A stretch of DNA of 64,000 nt from the sequence record PV805633.1; one strand, given 5' to 3'. A program made the translations under genes and the position numbers. The first letter of the stretch is position 1, and the number at the start of each line of letters is the position of its first letter. Origin of the DNA: a phage. The notes under the pieces were generated by a model. That model ran no database searches and was not told where the DNA came from. It saw nothing but the letters and a program-made list of their open reading frames with translations. Positions 37,191 through 61,832 of this stretch are shown piece after piece.

Positions 37191-37203
37191 AGTATGAAGT
37201 ATT

Positions 37204-39158
37204 TTAAGGCATTTTCACATACCCAGGTATGCCTTGGGCTTGGCGTATATACCGTATAGCACGCTCCTGGTTTTCTTTCTCAGCCTCCCGATCTACGGAA
37301 GCCTGTGATCGAAAGTTACGAGGAGCCAGGTTTTGCGGATCAGCCTGTACCTGCCCCTGAGCATTTTTAAGCATTGCAGCAGCTCTAGCAACAGCCTCCT
37401 GTCGTGCAGGTAACAGTGCAGTAAGTGCAGTCTGACCTGTAGCAATCTTATTTGGGTGTTTGACAGTGCAGCTACGGCAGCATCATATGCAGTCTGTGCT
37501 GCCTGAATATTCTGCATAGCCTGAGCACGACCAAGGTTACGTACACTTGCTTCAAGGGGTTCACCACGTTTTAACCCCTCAATCATTTGGTCTACCTGAC
37601 GGTCATTAAGTCGCAAGCCATTACCGGCTTCTGGGGTTTGCCCTATAGTTAGATAATCAATAAGACGTCCTGTATTACTTTCCGGTACGTTAGTCATTGC
37701 ACGTTGAACAACAACACCTGCCATAGCAGGAGATACATTAGCACGCTGAGCAATATCATTGATACGAGCCACAACCCATTGTTTATCTGCCCCCTTAAAG
37801 TCACCCTCTAGTAATCTGTTAGCAACTTCCCCAACAGTAGAAGTGTCATTTAAGGCAGGTAAATAATCAGGAGCAATACTTCCAGCATTGTCCTCCATAG
37901 AACGAGTACCAATCATACCGGTAGCCAGAGTAGATACTGCCTGATTACCTTGGTTATTCTGAACCATAGCTAGTGGGTCAGCCCCTACTTCAGCTTGGGC
38001 AATAACAGGTTTCATCTCTTCCCAAGTCATATCCTTATAAGCACCTGGAGTAGAGTTAGGCAGAGCAGCCCAAGTATCTTTAAGGTTACCGTTCTTACGG
38101 GCCTCGAAGATAGCCCTACCAATCTTATCCTGGTTCTCAGGAGAAAGAGGCTGGCTTTGCCAATCTGGACCAAGAACTTTAGGAGCGAAGTCTAGCAGAG
38201 TAGCTTGGTTAATCTGGAATGCACCAACAGGAGAAGCACCCTGCTTCGACTTCATACTATCCTGATGCTTAATTACATCACCAATACTCATTTGAGTAAT
38301 AGGAGTAGATGTACCAGCAAACTGGTAAGTAACATCATAAGGAGAACCCTGACGAGTACCAGCAGTACCTGGGGCAGACGTAGCACCAACATTGTTACCG
38401 TAAACACCCGGATATGCTCGTGCAAGCATTTCCTGCAAACGTGCCTGTGCAACCGGAGACAGATGCTTACTATAAGATTCTGCCAGAATACGGGCATCGT
38501 CAGCATTCTCAGCACCACGAGTAATCAGTGCCATTACCCCCGTAGCAGCCTGACTATCAGCATCATTACGTTGAGCAACACCTAAATCAAAACGATTCTG
38601 TGCCTGATTAATAGCCTGACCACCCTGACCTTGAAGACGACTCAGCATGTCCAATTGCTGGTCAGCAGGGAGTGCAGACAATGCATCACGGGTCTGACTT
38701 AATGCAGCATTAATACGGTTCTGGTCACCCGACTGATAAGCCTCAGACAGCAAACGAATAGCAGGGGAAGCATTATCTAATGCAGTGTTAGTATCCCGTA
38801 AACGATCAAAGTTATAAGTATTGTAGTCATTGGTTCCCTGCTGACCTTGTTGAGTCAACAGTGTACCTGCTCGCTCATCAAGGTTTTGGAGGGTACGCTG
38901 GTTTATCAATGAAGGGTCAACCCCCTGAAACAGTGCACCAGATGCCAAAGCATTGCGGTACTCAGTAGGGTCTTGGTACTGCATAGCATTCATCATGACG
39001 GCATTGCCAGCCTCCTGCTTGGCAGCGTTCTGGAAATTACCCAGTGCATCACTTAAGCCGGAGGTGGCGTTACCAATCATGCTACCAAATGTGCGAATGC
39101 TGTCACCAACTCCAGAGAAGTTAGGTGCATCAACATTTCTCCACGTTATCTGAGCCAT
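37204..39158 (-). CDS. virion protein (N4 gp51-like), Gln/Ala-rich; reading frame interrupted by a 1-nt indel near 37451-37453
   Basis: 621-aa track ORF ends in R/L-rich out-of-frame sequence; alternative frame gives a coherent C-terminus ending ...GIPGYVKMP at 37204; AGGAAACC SD before ATG 39158. Confidence 0.65.
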
Positions 39159-49010: not shown

Positions 49011-49511
49011 CTATTCAAAAAGTTTACGGTCAGCCTGAATTTGCTTACCCAACTCAATTAGTTGGTTGTCACGGAGTCTAACAGTTGCCCGGAGTTCTTC
49101 AACCAAACGTCTGCCTTCTTCAAGACTGTTGTCGAGTCTGGCTGCATGGCTTGCAAGACTTCTGCACTCAAGGGTTCCGGCTTCGGCTTGACGTTTATAT
49201 ACCGATGCTCGTCTTTCAGACTGTTGCATCCGGCTGTCGTAATCACTGCTAACGCGAGCAAGCTCGCTTGCGTAATTACTCTCAGCCGTCTGCAACCGGG
49301 AAGTAAGTAACCCGACTTCATAACTATGGTTTCTTTGGAGAGCATTGTATTTGTCCTGTAGTTTTTGTGTTGCCTTCTGGTCTTCAACCTTTTGAGCATC
49401 CCATCTCTTTTGGACAGTAGACTGTCCATTGGAATTGCCCCAAAAGTAAATGGTGGCCCCGAGGACCACCACCAGAAGATAAGGCCAACCTTTAGAGATT
49501 AGCATCTTCAT
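49011..49511 (-). CDS. Rz-like i-spanin (N-terminal TM helix, coiled-coil periplasmic domain)
   Basis: [27 protein letters not shown] followed by a charged coiled-coil region; GGAGG 7 nt before ATG 49511; contains an embedded lipoprotein ORF. Confidence 0.65.
49058..49321 (-). CDS. Rz1-like o-spanin lipoprotein embedded within the Rz gene in another frame
   Basis: Signal peptide with lipobox-like ...[12 protein letters not shown], Pro-rich mature region; wholly inside Rz. Confidence 0.55.
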   Translation of the reverse strand: MKSGYLLPGCRRLRVITQASLLALAVITTAGCNSLKDEHRYINVKPKPEPLSAEVLQAMQPDSTTVLKKADVWLKNSGQLLDSVTTN

Positions 49512-50126
49512 TACATGCCTCCAGTGGTACATTACCGATTCGGTTAGCTACCCAACCATACGTAAAGTCTGGCATGTTCAATGAGGTGTAGTGGTTCAAT
49601 TGTTTAGCATCAAGCAACTTAATCATTACCTGACATGCTGCAACTTTGCCTCGTTTTTTCTGTAATGCTTTATATGCATTAACAGTACCTGCACCGACTT
49701 TACCATCAACTTGTATTTTAGGGTAGTCTTTGCCATCACGGGACATTTCATTAAGGGATTGCTGCAACCACTTAGCTGGTCTGGTTACACCGGTATTAAC
49801 ACCAGCATCAACCAGTTTGTGTGTTACAGCAGGAGATATATCAGCGAAGGCTACGAAGTTAGGCTTAATAACGTAGTCATCAATGTATATCTCAGCAGCC
49901 ATTTCTTTCGATAAACCCTTCATGGAACCATCCCAACCATACTCAGTAGCCAGAACTTCTTTGTGAGACTTAGCTACTGATTGGGTAATACCATGATTGG
50001 TTTCCCCACCTGGGTCACGAGGATTGTTTACGTACCCCCTTCCATATAGAACACTGCCCCCAGAATAGCAGCGATAACTCCTCCCACCGCACCCCCTTTT
50101 GCAGCAAGTTTCTGTTTAGCTTTCAT
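49492..50126 (-). CDS. GH108 N-acetylmuramidase endolysin with PG-binding domain and N-terminal Gly/Ala-rich TM (SAR-like) segment; frame broken at a C5 run (50035-50039)
   Basis: Frame 0 from ATG 50126 encodes MKAKQKLAAKGGAVGGVIAAILGAVFYMEGGT*; the -1 frame continues with the family motif GYVNNPRDPGGETNHGIT and the track ORF 49492-49923; combined length ~210 aa. Confidence 0.65.
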
Positions 50127-50376
50127 GGGAATCTTCCTTTGGATGGAAACGTATTAGTCTGCCCACAATGTTTAAGGCAAACAGTGCGATTGTAATACTG
50201 GAACCATGTGGAATATCTTCAAGGATGTGACGTGGTAGTCCTGTTAGCATTGGTTGGATAATATCTACTGTAGAAAACAGAATTAATCCAAATGCACTAA
50301 TCTGAACAGATGCCCACTTCCAGGACTTCTTCCAGTTAGGAACTAGCCCTATTTTTCTTTTTAGCTTGCGAACCAT
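50116..50376 (-). CDS. holin-like small membrane protein (2 predicted TM)
   Basis: GGGAGA 8 nt upstream of ATG 50376; hydrophobic segments WASVQISAFGLILFSTV and SSITIALFALNIVG; directly upstream of the endolysin. Confidence 0.5.
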   Translation of the reverse strand: MVRKLKRKIGLVPNWKKSWKWASVQISAFGLILFSTVDIIQPMLTGLPRHILEDIPHGSSITIALFALNIVGRLIRFHPKEDSHES

Positions 50377-50693
50377 GCGAATATCTCCCGTCTTGCAGCA
50401 GCCAATACACCAATAATTGCACCTGCCCCAGCCCATACCCACTTACCAAAAATCCCAGCACCTGCAACCTTATGTTTGATGGTGATGAACTCTTCAATGG
50501 TAGGTTCGGACTTAGTGATGCTCTCCTCTACCCGTTTAAGTCGGGTACTGAGGTCACCCATAGACTCGCTTAGCTTTTTAATAGACTCTTCCATTTTCTC
50601 CCTATCCCTCGATTCACGAGTTTGGTTTTCGAAAATGTTTCTCAGTCTCTCTTCAAGTCTGGCTAGAGTTACGTTATCTGGTTCATTTCCCAT
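50361..50693 (-). CDS. lysis-associated membrane protein (coiled-coil N-terminus, C-terminal TM helix)
   Basis: 110 aa; C-terminal GIFGKWVWAGAGAIIGVLAAA; first gene of the lysis cluster. Confidence 0.5.
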   Translation of the reverse strand: MGNEPDNVTLARLEERLRNIFENQTRESRDREKMEESIKKLSESMGDLSTRLKRVEESITKSEPTIEEFITIKHKVAGAGIFGKWVWAGAGAIIGVLAAARREIFAWFAS

Positions 50694-50938: not shown

Positions 50939-53479
50939 TCAGAACACAAAATCCAGTTGCATAAGCTGCTTCAACTGAATCTGCACGGTACTATCCTGGG
51001 TTACTTCCGGAACAGTTAAGCCAGAAACACCGATTGCAAAGTCCGCAATGAACCCGGTAGTAGGATTCCTTACTATATCCGCCCCAGTACCCCCAGAACC
51101 TGTACTTGCAAACTGAGTCTGCTTAGAACCAAAAGCATTACCTGTACCTGCAATAACTAGTTGCCATACACCCCTGCCGAGCGTACCTGGAATACTCAAG
51201 CTACCTGAACCAGCAGCACGGAATATCTTGGTATTCTCATAGAACATACACTCTTGCAACGTGCAGGTACTTCTCTGCCCGGTACTCAGTACCTGATTAC
51301 CCTGGAAGCTAAAGTTAGTCTGGTCATTCAGAACGAAGTCGCAGAGCATGGATGCTTGCAACTGCACGTTCATATCCAGAGTGTTGGCATGTGCAATCAG
51401 GGACTTAGGAATGCCTCCAATACGATAACCGGGGGAGCGGTAGTTCAGGTTCAGCGTGTTCAGTTGCTTAATACTGTTACCCACCAGCTTAACGGTTTGC
51501 CCACGATATACTTCAGTTGCGTTGGTGCCGGCGTTAATCATGACACCTTCTGCTTTATTGCTGGCGGTTAAGCACTTAAGCACTACAGTATTATGACTTA
51601 CGTCAATATCCTGGTACACCTGGTATGCGCTATCGCCACCTCCAGTTGATATAGCTACCCCATCAAAAGCTCTAAGCTCGCAATAGTTGTTGTGAATCTT
51701 AACAAAGGGGTTCGGATACGTCGCTGCCGTAGCCTCCCCACCCCCACCTACATCGATGCTGCGGGTGTACCTGCCGCCCGCAAGCGGACCGGTACTGGTA
51801 CTATCCGGAATATCCCTGGAGCGCACATAGTTGTTAGAGATTATGAGGTTATATGGTTCATAGTTTGGGTGCCAGCCTGAACCACATTTAGCGTAGATAC
51901 CGACTACGCCATGCTCCAGGCAGAAGTTATCAGTGATAATTAACTGACCCCCACCGTGAAAATCGATGCATTTTCTACGGCAGTTAAAAACGAAATTGCG
52001 GCTGGCTGTTATGTTGCGTATTCTCCTGTTTCTACCATGTCCGATGCCATAGCCAGGGTCAAAGGATGCATTCAAATCATCAGCACCGTTCGGGTGTCCG
52101 ATGTTGCTAATTACATTATCAAAGTAGCCCATTTTGTAGCCACACAGAACACCTATACCGTTTGAGTAACAGTTGGTTATTGTGTTCTTTGAAATAATAA
52201 TACCTTCTGGAACATCGCTTTCATTTGGGTAGTCCGCCATGTCCGGTGAGGCAATATTTCTTATGCCAATCCCAACACCTGCATAGTTAAAGCCAGATAT
52301 CTTACACCTTTCAACGGTTATATTTTTACAAGCTCTTTGAATCTTAACACCGCAACTCCAGCTGCCAATATACCCGCCAAGAAAAGTACCCCAACTGCTT
52401 TGGTAGCTTCCTGTTGGATTACCCGCACTGTCATAGGATGGGAATTGTCCGGACACCTCATTAAATGCCCCTGTGTTATAACTAGAGGTATCAACTGAGT
52501 TATTTGGTCCCAACACATTAACTCCACCGGCTGTATTGTAGCCAAATCGAGATTCTCCTTTCTCTGCATAACCAGTAGGCGCATCTATAGCAGGGAACTT
52601 GTTAGGGCCACGCACTGTTACAGACACAGTCACGTTCCGGCAATTTACAAGGGCAAGCCCATCCAGTCCGTGCGTATTCACAATTATAGTGCCGTTGGAG
52701 ATACGAATACCTTCCTTATTTACCAGTGCCAGACACGGACTGTAGTTACGTGTACCGTCGCTGAAGTCAGGCTCAGTAGGGTACGTAGAAGCCAGTGCAG
52801 GATTTTTCGAACTAAATACGTCTTCCCGCCTAAATCAATATCTCCAGTGGTGGCGTCGAAACATGCCTGCACTGCCAACGTATCGTCGGCAACGCCATCA
52901 CCAACCGCCCCCCCATCCACGTGGATCGCCATTATCACGCCAGCGAGCCATTTGTAGTTCGGGGTATTTTGTTGCACCTTCAGGGTCTGAAATCTGTCCT
53001 CGTAGTACCGCATCCCCAACACTCACCCAAGCACCCAGACCAACGCCACCAGAAGTTTCGGGGGTTGAATCAGCAGGAACCTCTTTAGGTAATGCTCCAT
53101 CCCAACGGTACTTACCATCAGTGAATACAACCAGTTCATTCTTAGTATTAACTGTTACACCAGTAGCAAATGAACCAGGTAGGGTTACATACTCTTCACG
53201 AGCAACAGCCAGTGCACCTAAGTCCACACTACCAGCAGAATGAACTAATACTCCAGCAGGGCTAAGACTTACAGCAGTAACCCCTGAACCAATATCAGCA
53301 GGTAAGGAATAAGCACGCTGTGACGCTTTGTCATAAATGACTTTGTAACCAGTAAGCAGAGCACCCACTGAGAAGTAAACAACTTCCGATTGTTTAACCC
53401 CAAAGTGACGGGCTACTGCTTGTTTGTTGGTTAATATTCCGGTTGATCCTCTTCCACCTTGTGAGAATAATTCGTTCAT
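50939..53479 (-). CDS. tailspike/tail fibre protein with right-handed beta-helix (pectate-lyase-like) domain; split into three ORFs by two single-base homopolymer frame breaks
   Basis: Pieces 52898-53479, 52720-53022 and 50939-52681; beta-helix entry motif GAVGDGVADDTLAVQA in the middle piece; AAGAGG SD before ATG 53479. Confidence 0.65.
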
Positions 53480-53528: not shown

Positions 53529-56252
53529 TTAGCCAATGGACATACGGGAGTTAGCGAAATCATACGCATCTTGCTTTTTAGCAAACTGCGTTACGAAGTA
53601 GTCGCTGATACGAATTACACACCCGTTCGTTGACTGCAACTTAAGACGGCAAGTTCCTGCTGTTGCCGCCTGTCCTACACCGAAAGTATGCACCCATTCT
53701 CCTGGTGATGTGTATAGCCCCCCAAGAGGTACAGAATCCGCAATAGATGCCGTAACATCACCACTTACCAGTTTAAGACTGCACCCCCATACAATCTGAT
53801 AATACTGCGCTATGTTAGCCACTGGTTCACTCAAGAATAGGGTATATCCGGCAGGTATTACTAACTGAGCGCAAGTATCGCTTAACACACCGTCAGTAAC
53901 CGATGTGGCGTCTACGGTGCTCGTCCCGACAAACGCCCACGGCCCGCTCCCTGAAAAAGATTGTGAGTTTAGTACCGTACCAGTATGTGGGCGCTTTATT
54001 CTTCCGTTCAGCTTTGTACCACGAAGTGACAAATCCAGGTTACTGGCCACAGTGGATGAAACACTCGCCACAGATTCAACGTGAACCTTATCGCCGACGT
54101 AGCCACCTACGATAAGGTCGTGCGCAATAATCTGGCTTCCGTCGTCAACATTGATACTATACACACCAGTCGCGGCATCAAACCTACAGTTTTTTGCCAC
54201 CAGGGTAGAGCTTATCAGCTCAATATTGTTAAAATGGCACCCTTCCGCAACAGTTACCGGAACATTCTCTATTTTTAACTGTCTCGGGGTTTGCGGAACC
54301 CCGTCAACAGTTACTGTGTCTGCGGTGGCTACCAATTCGAACCATACGTTGCTGATAGTGGGCGGTACGACAGGAGCCAATCCATTGCCTTTAAAATAAA
54401 TACCGCCACCAGGGCATGCCTCAATGATACAGTCACGAATTGCTATGCCGTCAAGACCACCACCAGGAGCAGGACCTCCGACAGCGCCATTAAGGTAAAT
54501 GCTGTACGTATTAATTCCTGCAAAATGGCAATCCCTCCATGTATCAGCCCCGACATGCATGCCTGGGTCTGATACCGCCATATGGCCGTAATTACACGCC
54601 AGATAGCTACAGTGTTGGTACGTGTTGCCGATGTTTCCTTTCGGCTTGTAAAATCCAATATCAAGACCGTCAAAGGCAATATCCCTAAAGTTCCATCGGC
54701 CATCAAGATTAGATGATCCAAAAGCTATGCCTGTACCAACAGGGGTGGTTATGTCCCCTTCGATGAGGAAGTTCTGGGCGTGCCGATACTGCCACAGGCG
54801 GGAAGACTCGGTTAGAGTTAAACTTGTTTCCCCGGAGGATGGTTTAAATTTTACCTGATAACCAGTACCAATTATGTTGGCATTTCCCGATGTGTATTGC
54901 CCCGTGTAAGTACCAGGAGTGACCAGGAGATCATCTCGCCATCCAGTTGCATCAATAGCATCCTGTAAGTCTAAGTAATTACCAGAATGTTTAATATCAT
55001 CAAGATTGTCAGCAACAGTTCTCGTCCCATGACCAACGGATGCAGAACCAGTTGTCTGTGAATAGAAGTCCTTAACTTCAGCGATAATACTTTCCTTGGG
55101 AACATCCAATGGTAGTAGGTCAACTGTTACGTTACCGGGGGAATACGTTAACTGACCCTCACTAACAGATGCAATGTAAACGTTATTAGGTAAAGTAGGT
55201 AAGACATAGATGTGTTGGTTAACCACATCATAAATAACCTTCATTCCATTCAGATACTGAGTAGTATTAGTACTCAGTATAACTTCATTCTCCTGCACAT
55301 TAGCAGAACGAGCTACTTCCTGAATGGTACGGTCAGACATAACCAGGGTAGTAGACTCACCACCAATAGTTACAATCAAACGATCGTTGGTAGCCAGAGG
55401 CTCTGTTAAAAGGATACGCTGGTTAGCTGCATCGACTGTATAGGACTTATCAGCCAAACCTGCATAGTAGCGTTCGCCATTCTTGTAGATGGCTGGTACA
55501 GATTCAAACGTATACGGAACAGCAATTACTTGCTCACCACCCGAAGCATACCCACCGTTGTATAGCCAGTTAATCTGAACCCAGTCATTTACGTTAGGGT
55601 TATCTGGAACAGCAGGAGTACCGGTAAGGAACAGATGTACTTCATCACCTGGTTCCAATGGTTGAGCCAGAGTAACAGTTAGTGAAGCTGCATCATAGGT
55701 AAAACCATAACCAACTAAGTTGGTGTAGCCCCCAATTACAATCATCGGTACACCAACAGTGCCAGCAGGCACTGGGATAGTGGTTTCACCCCCAATAGCA
55801 GAACCATTGTTATATGAATATGGGATGTATGGTGGAGATGCTTTACCATCACCAGAATCTCCACCATCATCTGAATTAGAAGTGGCAACCAAAATCCAGG
55901 AACCAGTAGCAGACTGGTCATCCGGAATAACACCTGTACGGTCACCATCTACATACAGGTAATCTGTAACAACTCGTTTATTGGTATTATCAAAACCATA
56001 CAGACGTACATAGGATGCACTGGTAGGCATGGCCTTCAGTTCAGTTTCTGATTGAACACCTAGTACCATTCCATATTTATTTAAGAAATCATAAATGAGT
56101 TTAAGGTTACCCAAGTTACAGTAAACAGTGCGAACCACATGGTAAGCATTACCAAGTAGTGCATCTACCATTGGGTCGTTGGATCTATTCTGGCAGTAAG
56201 GATTAGACCAATCCTGATTTGCATCGAAGGGGGTATGTGCGTTCATCGCCAT
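53529..56252 (-). CDS. second receptor-binding/tail protein (907 aa) with beta-helix-like repeats
   Basis: Large ORF; Gly/Asn-rich repetitive segments such as ...IAIRDCIIEACPGGGIYFKGNG typical of beta-helix adhesins. Confidence 0.6.
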   Translation of the reverse strand: MAMNAHTPFDANQDWSNPYCQNRSNDPMVDALLGNAYHVVRTVYCNLGNLKLIYDFLNKYGMVLGVQSETELKAMPTSASYVRLYGFDNTNKRVVTDYLYVDGDRTGVIPDDQSATGSWILVATSNSDDGGDSGDGKASPPYIPYSYNNGSAIGGETTIPVPAGTVGVPMIVIGGYTNLVGYGFTYDAASLTVTLAQPLEPGDEVHLFLTGTPAVPDNPNVNDWVQINWLYNGGYASGGEQVIAVPYTFESVPAIYKNGERYYAGLADKSYTVDAANQRILLTEPLATNDRLIVTIGGESTTLVMSDRTIQEVARSANVQENEVILSTNTTQYLNGMKVIYDVVNQHIYVLPTLPNNVYIASVSEGQLTYSPGNVTVDLLPLDVPKESIIAEVKDFYSQTTGSASVGHGTRTVADNLDDIKHSGNYLDLQDAIDATGWRDDLLVTPGTYTGQYTSGNANIIGTGYQVKFKPSSGETSLTLTESSRLWQYRHAQNFLIEGDITTPVGTGIAFGSSNLDGRWNFRDIAFDGLDIGFYKPKGNIGNTYQHCSYLACNYGHMAVSDPGMHVGADTWRDCHFAGINTYSIYLNGAVGGPAPGGGLDGIAIRDCIIEACPGGGIYFKGNGLAPVVPPTISNVWFELVATADTVTVDGVPQTPRQLKIENVPVTVAEGCHFNNIELISSTLVAKNCRFDAATGVYSINVDDGSQIIAHDLIVGGYVGDKVHVESVASVSSTVASNLDLSLRGTKLNGRIKRPHTGTVLNSQSFSGSGPWAFVGTSTVDATSVTDGVLSDTCAQLVIPAGYTLFLSEPVANIAQYYQIVWGCSLKLVSGDVTASIADSVPLGGLYTSPGEWVHTFGVGQAATAGTCRLKLQSTNGCVIRISDYFVTQFAKKQDAYDFANSRMSIG

Positions 56253-56674
56253 CCTCGTTGTTCAAATTTAGTTTCGGTAATTGAAATACTTCCATTAGCC
56301 AGGTCGTAATCAACAACCTCACCACAGATGCTTTCATACGTTTGCAGATACTCTGCTGCTTTAGCGTTAGCTTCAGGAGTATTCAAACCAGTGTGGTAAC
56401 GATAACCCACCCAGTTATGAAGTGCCGTCATTAGCGTGTCAGCTAAATCAACTTCCTGTTCTTCATCACCCGTAAGTACTGGGTGCTTAGCTTGATACGT
56501 TACGTTAAGTGCCTCGAAGTGTCGAGGTCTCATACACTGAATAGTATCAGGCCGTGGAGTGAAAATAGCACGAGGGTCTGAGTCGTCGTTCAGTCTACGT
56601 CGATTCCCAGAGTTATCAAACACATTTAGGATTTTAATAACATCATCCTGGAAAGGCTTCATGAACCCATCCAT
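56243..56674 (-). CDS. virion/tail-associated protein (143 aa); start uncertain
   Basis: ORF track; overlaps upstream 97-aa ORF by 16 nt; no SD close to the ATG. Confidence 0.45.
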   Translation of the reverse strand: MDGFMKPFQDDVIKILNVFDNSGNRRRLNDDSDPRAIFTPRPDTIQCMRPRHFEALNVTYQAKHPVLTGDEEQEVDLADTLMTALHNWVGYRYHTGLNTPEANAKAAEYLQTYESICGEVVDYDLANGSISITETKFEQRGWR

Positions 56675-56952
56675 GATATAAGGATATTGAACCTCAAGAG
56701 TAGGCTGAGTAAATTTGAGTAAGCATATTTGGATTGAAGAGGATAATCAGTACGTCCTTCCTTCATCTCTACAATGCAGCTATTTGTCTTAAGGGGGAAA
56801 CGACTATGAAGTCGTACCAGTCCTTCATTAATAGCTGCCAGTATCTCCGGCTTACTATCTGGTTCAATATCCAGTCTGTCATCCGTGACTGCACCAGTAC
56901 CTTTTAAGGTACTTAGTGCCAAGCCACGGTATACTTCCGATAGTTTCTGCAT
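56659..56952 (-). CDS. hypothetical protein (97 aa); C-terminal ~20 residues look out-of-frame
   Basis: ORF track; may form one gene with the 143-aa ORF. Confidence 0.4.
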   Translation of the reverse strand: MQKLSEVYRGLALSTLKGTGAVTDDRLDIEPDSKPEILAAINEGLVRLHSRFPLKTNSCIVEMKEGRTDYPLQSKYAYSNLLSLLLRFNILISWMGS

Positions 56953-60886: not shown

Positions 60887-61088
60887 GATAGCTACAATAT
60901 TTTTGCATGTCGATTTCATCATAGCTATGTGTAGCTACAGTGGTGTGACTGGGGCTACACCCTTACACTCAACCATCCCCCCCGGTATGTTGACCCTGTA
61001 GCCACTACCCTACCCCACCTTACACGTTACACGTTGCTCCGCAACCTATGGACATGTCGTCCTATCATCAACTATTGGAGCTATCATC
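60887..61088 (+). promoter_or_regulatory. palindrome- and repeat-rich intergenic control region (candidate promoter/operator cluster)
   Basis: Palindromes ATAGCTAT and GTAGCTAC (three TAGCTA cores within 50 nt), direct repeats TACACGT x2 and CTATCATCA x2, -35/-10-like TTGCAT-17-TATGTG. Confidence 0.4.
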
Positions 61089-61412
61089 ATGACTACTACC
61101 GCTACTGTACGTATGACCGCAGGAACTCTGCTGGGTACTGTTAACTCAGCTGCTACTACTGTTGCAGATTCCTTCGGTGCTGCAACAAAAGCAGTTGGTA
61201 TGCTTAATTCTTATGTAAGTACTATGGCAAAGAAACAAGCCATTCGTACTAAATTAGAAATGCATACTTTCGAAAACAAATTAGCTGAAGAAACAGCTAT
61301 GAACGAGACTCTTCGTAAGAAAAGTATCGAAGAATTCTGCAAAGATCCAGAAAACGCTCGTATCTACAACGCAGAATATTCAAGAATAATTGACATCCTG
61401 TCTAAAGACTAA
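61089..61412 (+). CDS. hypothetical protein (107 aa)
   Basis: TGGAG upstream of ATG. Confidence 0.55.
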   Translation: MTTTATVRMTAGTLLGTVNSAATTVADSFGAATKAVGMLNSYVSTMAKKQAIRTKLEMHTFENKLAEETAMNETLRKKSIEEFCKDPENARIYNAEYSRIIDILSKD

Positions 61413-61415
61413 ATC

Positions 61416-61442
61416 AATAGGAGGCTCTTCGAGCCTCCTATT
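61416..61442 (+). other. perfect 12-bp hairpin (AATAGGAGGCTC / GAGCCTCCTATT, 3-nt loop) directly after the stop codon
   Basis: Perfect inverted repeat; no U-tract; the 12-mer AATAGGAGGCTC recurs at 63563-63574 in the terminator. Confidence 0.5.
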
Positions 61443-61501
61443 AAGGGCATTAGATAGATAGATAGTCAGTTCTGTATAAAAAGATAGGAGAGATACCTAC
61501 T

Positions 61502-61648
61502 ATGAGCAAACTAAAAAACGCATTCATGCTGATTGTCAGTGTCCTTGCACTTGTTGCTATGGTTTCCGTATACATTGGAAAACCTCTGGTAAACACTGAC
61601 TATGGTAATGGTCAGAAAGTAAAATCCATCCTGCTAATGGATAAGTAA
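61502..61648 (+). CDS. small membrane protein (48 aa)
   Basis: AGGAGA SD; single TM helix AFMLIVSVLALVAMVSVYI. Confidence 0.45.
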   Translation: MSKLKNAFMLIVSVLALVAMVSVYIGKPLVNTDYGNGQKVKSILLMDK

Positions 61649-61832
61649 AATGTCCTTGAATCTAAATCACCGTAAGAAATTCTGGATATCTTACATACCC
61701 TAAAAGACAACGACGCTCCGCGTCTTATGGATGATGTAAATGCATCCACTAATCATTGAAATTTTATCCTTTTGTTTGGGTGTTCTCACCGACGAGTTCA
61801 CCCGTAATTCACATAAATCTGGAGAGTACAAA

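Follow-up and report, generated by a model that had tools for sequence, protein, structure and literature searches.

The locus at positions 49492–50126 (minus strand) of the stretch analyzed here (64 kb of phage DNA, hereafter the window) is broken into two frames, and very probably represents a gp61 orthologue: a single 211-aa signal-anchor-release (SAR) endolysin composed of a SAR helix, a GH108 domain and a PG_binding_3 domain, in which a single base has been lost from the Gly30–Gly31 codons. From the sequence comparisons presented below, we infer that this loss is most likely a sequencing or assembly error and not a property of the phage. By megablast, the region belongs to Gamaleyavirus (G7C-like, N4-like coliphages of the Schitoviridae), with identities of 97.8% to G7C and 96–97% to Bas96, PhAPEC5, PhAPEC7, and KKP 3715.

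Organization of the gp61 locus

The 5′ ORF begins at ATG 50126 (minus strand), 6 nt after a Shine–Dalgarno sequence (AAGGAAG, 50133–50139), and comprises 32 codons (MKAKQKLAAKGGAVGGVIAAILGAVFYMEGGT) that end at a TAA stop (50030–50028). The first 11 nt of this ORF also belong to the 3′ end of gp62. The −1 frame reads GYVNNPRDPGGETNHGIT... and is open down to a stop at 49492–49494. A first-pass annotation of the DNA had described this arrangement, and its coordinates, the stop, the G5 run, and the −1 continuation were each borne out on the window sequence. The parts of the locus are as follows.

50028–50126, minus strand: 5′ fragment of gp61, codons 1–31 of what is probably the true protein, followed by an out-of-frame Thr and TAA
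50035–50039, minus strand (C5 on the plus strand): G5 run from which one base is very probably missing, coding in relatives for Gly30–Gly31 of EGGY
49492–50034, minus strand, −1 frame: 3′ part of gp61, Tyr32 to Leu211 and the stop

G7C gp61 matches the 5′ fragment in one frame (residues 1–31, 100% identity) and the 3′ part in the other (residues 23–211, 94.7%); because it aligns across both frames, the two ORFs are not a chance pair. Start and stop of gp61 span 635 nt in the window vs. 636 nt in relatives. The first ATG, GTG, or TTG in the −1 frame is ATG 49923 (M69 of the full protein); with no start before M69, a product containing the presumed catalytic Glu cannot be made unless the frame changes.

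Domains and SAR helix of the repaired protein

Insertion of one G yields a continuous protein of 211 aa. The first-pass annotation had anticipated about 210 aa from one extra G, which agrees both with this length and with the additional base in relatives, although the protein starts with MKAKQK and not, as then proposed, with MEGGY. The repaired protein has Pfam matches to GH108 (PF05838; residues 24–113, 71.1 bits vs. a gathering cut-off of 21.2, E 1e-19) and PG_binding_3 (PF09374; residues 117–196, 33.1 bits vs. 24.6, E 6.5e-8), both above the gathering scores, as expected from the original assignment as a GH108 muramidase with a PG-binding-like C-terminus. It also matches the PHROG 315 endolysin family (E 1.4e-41). 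The 3′ part holds the remainder of GH108 and all of PG_binding_3.

49789–50057, minus strand: whole GH108 domain, spanning the frame break
49540–49779, minus strand: PG_binding_3 domain, C-terminal to GH108
50046–50096, minus strand: SAR helix, residues 11–27 (GGAVGGVIAAILGAVFY), from hydropathy and composition

The break had been placed between a transmembrane segment and the catalytic domain; it falls instead inside GH108, where the EGGY motif is cut after G31 and before Y32. Once the base is restored, E29-G-G-Y32 is invariant with N4, G7C, KKP 3715, and the 6V3Z/6V40 chains, whereas the raw window splits the motif, with Glu in one frame and Tyr in the other. We take Glu29 of EGGY to be the catalytic Glu of GH108; a literature search on the motif returned no open-access primary source assigning the catalytic residue.

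Residues 11–27 form the sole hydrophobic segment of the repaired protein. Nine of the 17 residues are Gly or Ala (53%), and the segment is weakly hydrophobic (Kyte–Doolittle peak ~2.0); it is preceded by four Lys in residues 1–10 and followed directly by Glu29. It aligns with the N-terminus of N4 gp61 (VGGVIAAIIAAVF) and fits the published description of the N4 gp61 SAR domain. The proposal of a SAR-type Gly/Ala-rich helix is thereby upheld by composition, by the alignment to N4 gp61, and by experiments on N4 (bioRxiv 10.1101/2025.11.12.688109). That this gp61 family is of SAR type has already been published, and several N4-like genomes already label gp61 "SAR endolysin N-acetylmuramidase," so there is nothing new in the assignment itself. 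The biological weight of the locus is accordingly small: it is a standard member of a characterized family whose SAR mechanism has been published for N4.

The break site in related phages

In G7C, Bas96, PhAPEC5, and KKP 3715, gp61 is one uninterrupted ORF of 636 nt (211 aa). The first three read GAA GGA GGG TAC at the site where the window reads GAA GGG GG- TAC; KKP 3715, the nearest at the protein level (99.5% amino-acid identity), reads GAA GGG GGG TAC, that is, G6 vs. G5 in the window. Since the nearest gp61 has G6, the simplest description is a homopolymer change in which G6 was read as G5. The window gp61 differs from that of KKP 3715 by 15 synonymous and two non-synonymous codons, with no new stops.

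Wider comparisons gave the same picture. Over the aligned span, the 40 megablast matches listed are all one or two bases longer than the window, with the single exception of a two-piece match carrying a large insertion. When 50,697 phage records were searched by tblastn, each of the matches listed ran through residues 31/32 without a break. A pattern that allowed both alleles recovered three IMG/VR and three metagenome (JGI) contigs, 6/6 with the intact six-base form, and had no match in GTDB genomes. The exact G5 34-mer was not found in IMG/VR, nor was the G5 allele found in IMG/VR, JGI metagenomes, or GTDB genomes. Searches for an independent assembly of the same phage were negative too: exact-protein look-ups with the portal protein of the window and with the 143-aa gp61 fragment gave no match, and neither did complete E. 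coli genomes or PLSDB plasmids. Two other accounts raised at the outset, a two-ORF layout shared by homologues and an N-terminal peptide that is a separate conserved holin/antiholin gene, do not agree with the homologues checked: none share the layout, gp61 being single and in frame, and the peptide is the gp61 N-terminus in relatives.

Other frame-breaking indels in the window

The whole window was aligned to G7C, and tblastn was run with 54 G7C proteins. Most genes with a G7C counterpart align in one frame, but in several conserved ones the frame is interrupted by single-base indels that only the window has. In total, at least five single-base indels split four conserved genes in the 64 kb (gp51, gp61, the tail spike gene, and gp67). 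Those outside gp61 are listed here.

~37453, minus strand (gene 37195–39158): gp51 indel; relatives CCCAGAAT, window CCCA-AAT
~56718, minus strand (gene 56243–56952): gp67 indel; relatives ACTCCAAA, window ACT-CAAA, CC read as C
52908–52914 (G7) and 52803–52807 (A5), minus strand (gene 50939–53479): tail spike (gp63.1-type) indels, for which G6 and A6 are the probable lengths

The gp51 orthologue (66-kDa virion protein) has lost one base (G) near 37453 (CCCA-AATAAG in the window, CCCAGAATAAG in PD205, G7C, and Moo19), and its final ~80 residues run on in another frame. The gp67 orthologue (30-kDa virion structural protein) reads ACT-CA where G7C, ST4, Bas96, and two contigs read ACTCCA; against G7C it has 20 synonymous and two non-synonymous differences and no extra stops. 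Judged from sequence, gp67 is otherwise under purifying selection.

The tail-spike gene is cut into three ORFs, and changing G7 to G6 together with A5 to A6 gives one ORF of 846 aa. This repair was validated on the well-annotated tail spikes of Peacock and LS2, since the Enterobacter phage records taken as tail-spike references are heavily fragmented by indels; the repaired stretch over both junctions aligns in a single piece with each (74.6% and 68.2%, respectively). The tail spike is G7C-like at the N-terminus only. For its receptor-binding part, the relatives are tail spikes of Kayfunavirus (Enterobacter) and Salmonella phages and not G7C gp63.1, which makes this a swapped host-range module. 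Among the Enterobacter phages, vB_Ecl_MII_004 (L018) and 02_vB_Eclo_IJM (L019) have ~39-kb Kayfunavirus genomes with 125–130 annotated "genes" and tail-fiber genes shredded by many 1-nt deletions; both appear to be error-rich assemblies and poor references.

The practical value of these findings is a warning about sequence quality. With such indels in the window, annotators and pipelines would mis-call fragments, pseudogenes, and "novel small ORFs." A 32-aa "SAR peptide" and a 143-aa "leaderless endolysin" should not be deposited from the gp61 locus as separate proteins.

Origin of the frame break

The reading of the gp61 break as an artifact draws above all on the four further single-base indels that break three other conserved genes of the window. 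Five indels in four conserved genes are not plausible for a propagating virulent phage, whereas an error-prone consensus could contain them (as could arise from long reads, a chemistry sensitive to homopolymers, or low coverage). Two of the five, in gp51 and gp67, lie outside long homopolymers, so the error process would not be purely one of homopolymer undercalling. Neither gp61 nor gp67 shows decay beyond the single-base break. Against an artifact, a G6 run is also a site where genuine slippage during replication is naturally common.

Such slippage is the starting point of the alternative that survives best, which we nevertheless consider improbable: a real deletion, in which this genome lost its endolysin through spontaneous slippage at the G6 run, for instance because the genome is defective, because a minority variant entered the consensus, or because the mutation arose very recently. 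Runs of six G are prone to mutation, and the absence of other decay in gp61 is as compatible with a very recent event as with an artifact. However, with no start before M69 and thus no product containing Glu29, the deletion would leave a virulent phage without a functional endolysin; the same genome would also need a broken tail spike, gp51, and gp67, which is not credible if it propagates, and the G5 allele is absent from the IMG/VR, JGI, and GTDB searches described above. It is more doubtful still that G5 is real in a viable phage in which low-level −1 slippage supplies a trace of full-length SAR endolysin, either by ribosomal P-site slippage on GGG_GGU or by RNA polymerase stuttering on C5/G5. 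Were this so, the N4-type lysis system would exist here in a natural variant that is attenuated or delays lysis.

Programmed recoding, by which a −1 ribosomal frameshift or transcriptional slippage on G5 would join the SAR helix to the catalytic domain and set the dose of enzyme, is very hard to sustain. In its favor, a −1 shift would restore the exact wild-type protein (E-G-G-Y) at this G run and nowhere else, and lysis might need only a little endolysin. Yet the site is A_GGG_GGU and contains no X_XXY_YYZ heptamer, as was recognized in the first-pass annotation; the downstream 85 nt have a minimum free energy of −14.1 kcal/mol (z = 0.31), with 124 of 200 shuffles folding at least equally well; and the two-frame layout occurs in none of the relatives compared. 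In most relatives the run is interrupted by an A (GGAGGG), and there is thus nothing selected to slip. The four other frame-breaking indels would, moreover, need the same ad hoc explanation. Least credible of all is a pair of genuine genes, a 32-aa membrane peptide (holin/antiholin-like) and a separate leaderless endolysin: the 32-codon ORF has a good Shine–Dalgarno sequence in the window, but its peptide is residues 1–31 of an intact gp61 in all relatives, N4 included, and the downstream frame has neither a start before M69 nor the catalytic Glu. An alternative downstream start giving a cytoplasmic endolysin was ruled out, the first start (M69) lying past the catalytic Glu.

Neighboring lysis genes

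The gene order is gp63, gp62, gp61, gp60 with an embedded gp60′, and portal, as in G7C and N4.

50361–50693, minus strand: gp63 orthologue, 110 aa, C-terminal transmembrane domain (TMD); pinholin in N4
50116–50442, minus strand: gp62 orthologue, 108-aa GTG-start form; lysis regulator with two TMDs
49011–49511, minus strand: gp60 i-spanin (Rz-like), 166 aa; start overlaps the end of gp61
49058–49321, minus strand: gp60a o-spanin (Rz1-like lipoprotein), 87 aa, inside gp60 in another frame

The gp63 orthologue lies 235 nt upstream of gp61, with gp62 between them, and shares 60% identity with N4 gp63, the two being almost the same in the C-terminal TMD/receiver region. For gp62, relatives annotate a "holin" (PHROG 1356 holin; Pfam DUF7940), and the usually annotated 86-aa form starts at ATG 50376; the window gp62 is 59% identical to the 109-aa form of N4 gp62. 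The N-terminal extension of gp62 (50377–50442, minus strand; GTG start, MGMGWGRCNYWCIGCCKTGD...) is conserved with the 109-aa N4 gp62 and overlaps, in another frame, the highly conserved C-terminal TMD of gp63. Because of this overlap, constraint on gp63 may be what conserves the extension, and the conservation need not mean that it is translated. The gp60 protein matches PHROG 6197 (Rz-like spanin, E 3.5e-77) and is 98.8% identical to G7C gp60; gp60a had no PHROG match in the profile search, and its position is that of the annotated o-spanin of Bas96 and of gp60′ of G7C.

Comparison with known endolysins

Experiments on N4 gp61 have established that it works as a SAR endolysin and is released by the gp63 pinholin (Awuah et al., bioRxiv 10.1101/2025.11.12.688109). 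In both holin and pinholin lysogens it can stand in for a defective endolysin, behaving like R21 in the pinholin lysogen; it causes gradual lysis that does not depend on a holin, and lysis is rapid once negative charges are introduced into the SAR domain (bioRxiv 10.1101/2025.11.12.688109). In the same system, gp63 serves as the pinholin, and gp62 regulates lysis without being essential (bioRxiv 10.1101/2025.11.12.688109). According to the citation given there, N-acetylmuramidase activity of N4 gp61 was shown biochemically (Stojkovic & Rothman-Denes 2007, cited in bioRxiv 10.1101/2025.11.12.688109).

N4 gp61 (YP_950539.1), the founding member of CAZy GH108, is 68% identical to the repaired window gp61 over its full length, SAR helix included, and the orthology of the two is unambiguous. 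The two share a Lys-flanked Gly/Ala-rich helix (VGGVIAAI..AVF), an EGGYVN motif, a PG_binding_3 C-terminus, and the gene order gp63-gp62-gp61-gp60/60a-portal. The resemblance in size to N4 gp61, remarked on in the first-pass annotation, also holds (211 vs. 208 aa), the window protein having three extra residues in its N-terminal Lys-rich tail. Closer still are the Gamaleyavirus proteins of G7C, KKP 3715, Bas96, and PhAPEC5, with 98–99% amino-acid identity to the repaired protein (98% for G7C, YP_004782192.1; 99% for KKP 3715, WLW40930.1). In G7C, KKP 3715, Bas96, and PhAPEC5, gp61 has the same length and the same overlaps with gp62 and gp60 as in the window, and is intact; among them, the window alone has G5.

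P1 Lyz and phage 21 R21 carry, beside the catalytic Glu, a weakly hydrophobic N-terminal signal-anchor rich in Gly and Ala, and the enzymes are released when the pinholin depolarizes the membrane. The window gp61 is predicted to share this SAR logic, but P1 Lyz and R21 have a T4-lysozyme-like fold (GH24) and no sequence relationship to it. The closest solved structures are the Salmonella TtsA-family muramidases PDB 6V3Z (Sen1395) and 6V40 (E 4e-27 and 3e-20), which have the same GH108 plus PG_binding_3 architecture and an EGGYV motif. Unlike the window gp61, TtsA-family enzymes have no N-terminal SAR helix or signal sequence, and they act in non-lytic type 10 secretion rather than phage lysis; TtsA is holin-dependent.

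A mode of action can be proposed for the window gp61 by orthology to N4 gp61. The protein would be exported by the Sec system and held inactive, with its weakly hydrophobic Gly/Ala-rich helix tethering it in the inner membrane and directly abutting the presumed catalytic Glu29 of EGGY. Depolarization of the membrane by the gp63 pinholin would allow the helix to leave the bilayer and the enzyme to degrade murein, after which the gp60/gp60a spanins would disrupt the outer membrane. Muramidase activity is likewise ascribed to the window protein by its orthology to N4 gp61, and membrane tethering, with release or activation upon depolarization and no cleavage of a signal peptide, is predicted by analogy with the same protein, for which it has been shown.

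Homopolymer and terminal-repeat observations

Just downstream of the gp17 region, the window has its longest homopolymer, a T13 run at 88–100 that corresponds to T8 in G7C and whose length may be unreliable. The left end (1–790) and the right terminal repeat (71758–72547) of G7C both map to ~60946–61650. With both G7C ends on one stretch, the direct terminal repeat appears to have been collapsed and the assembly to be circularly permuted relative to G7C.
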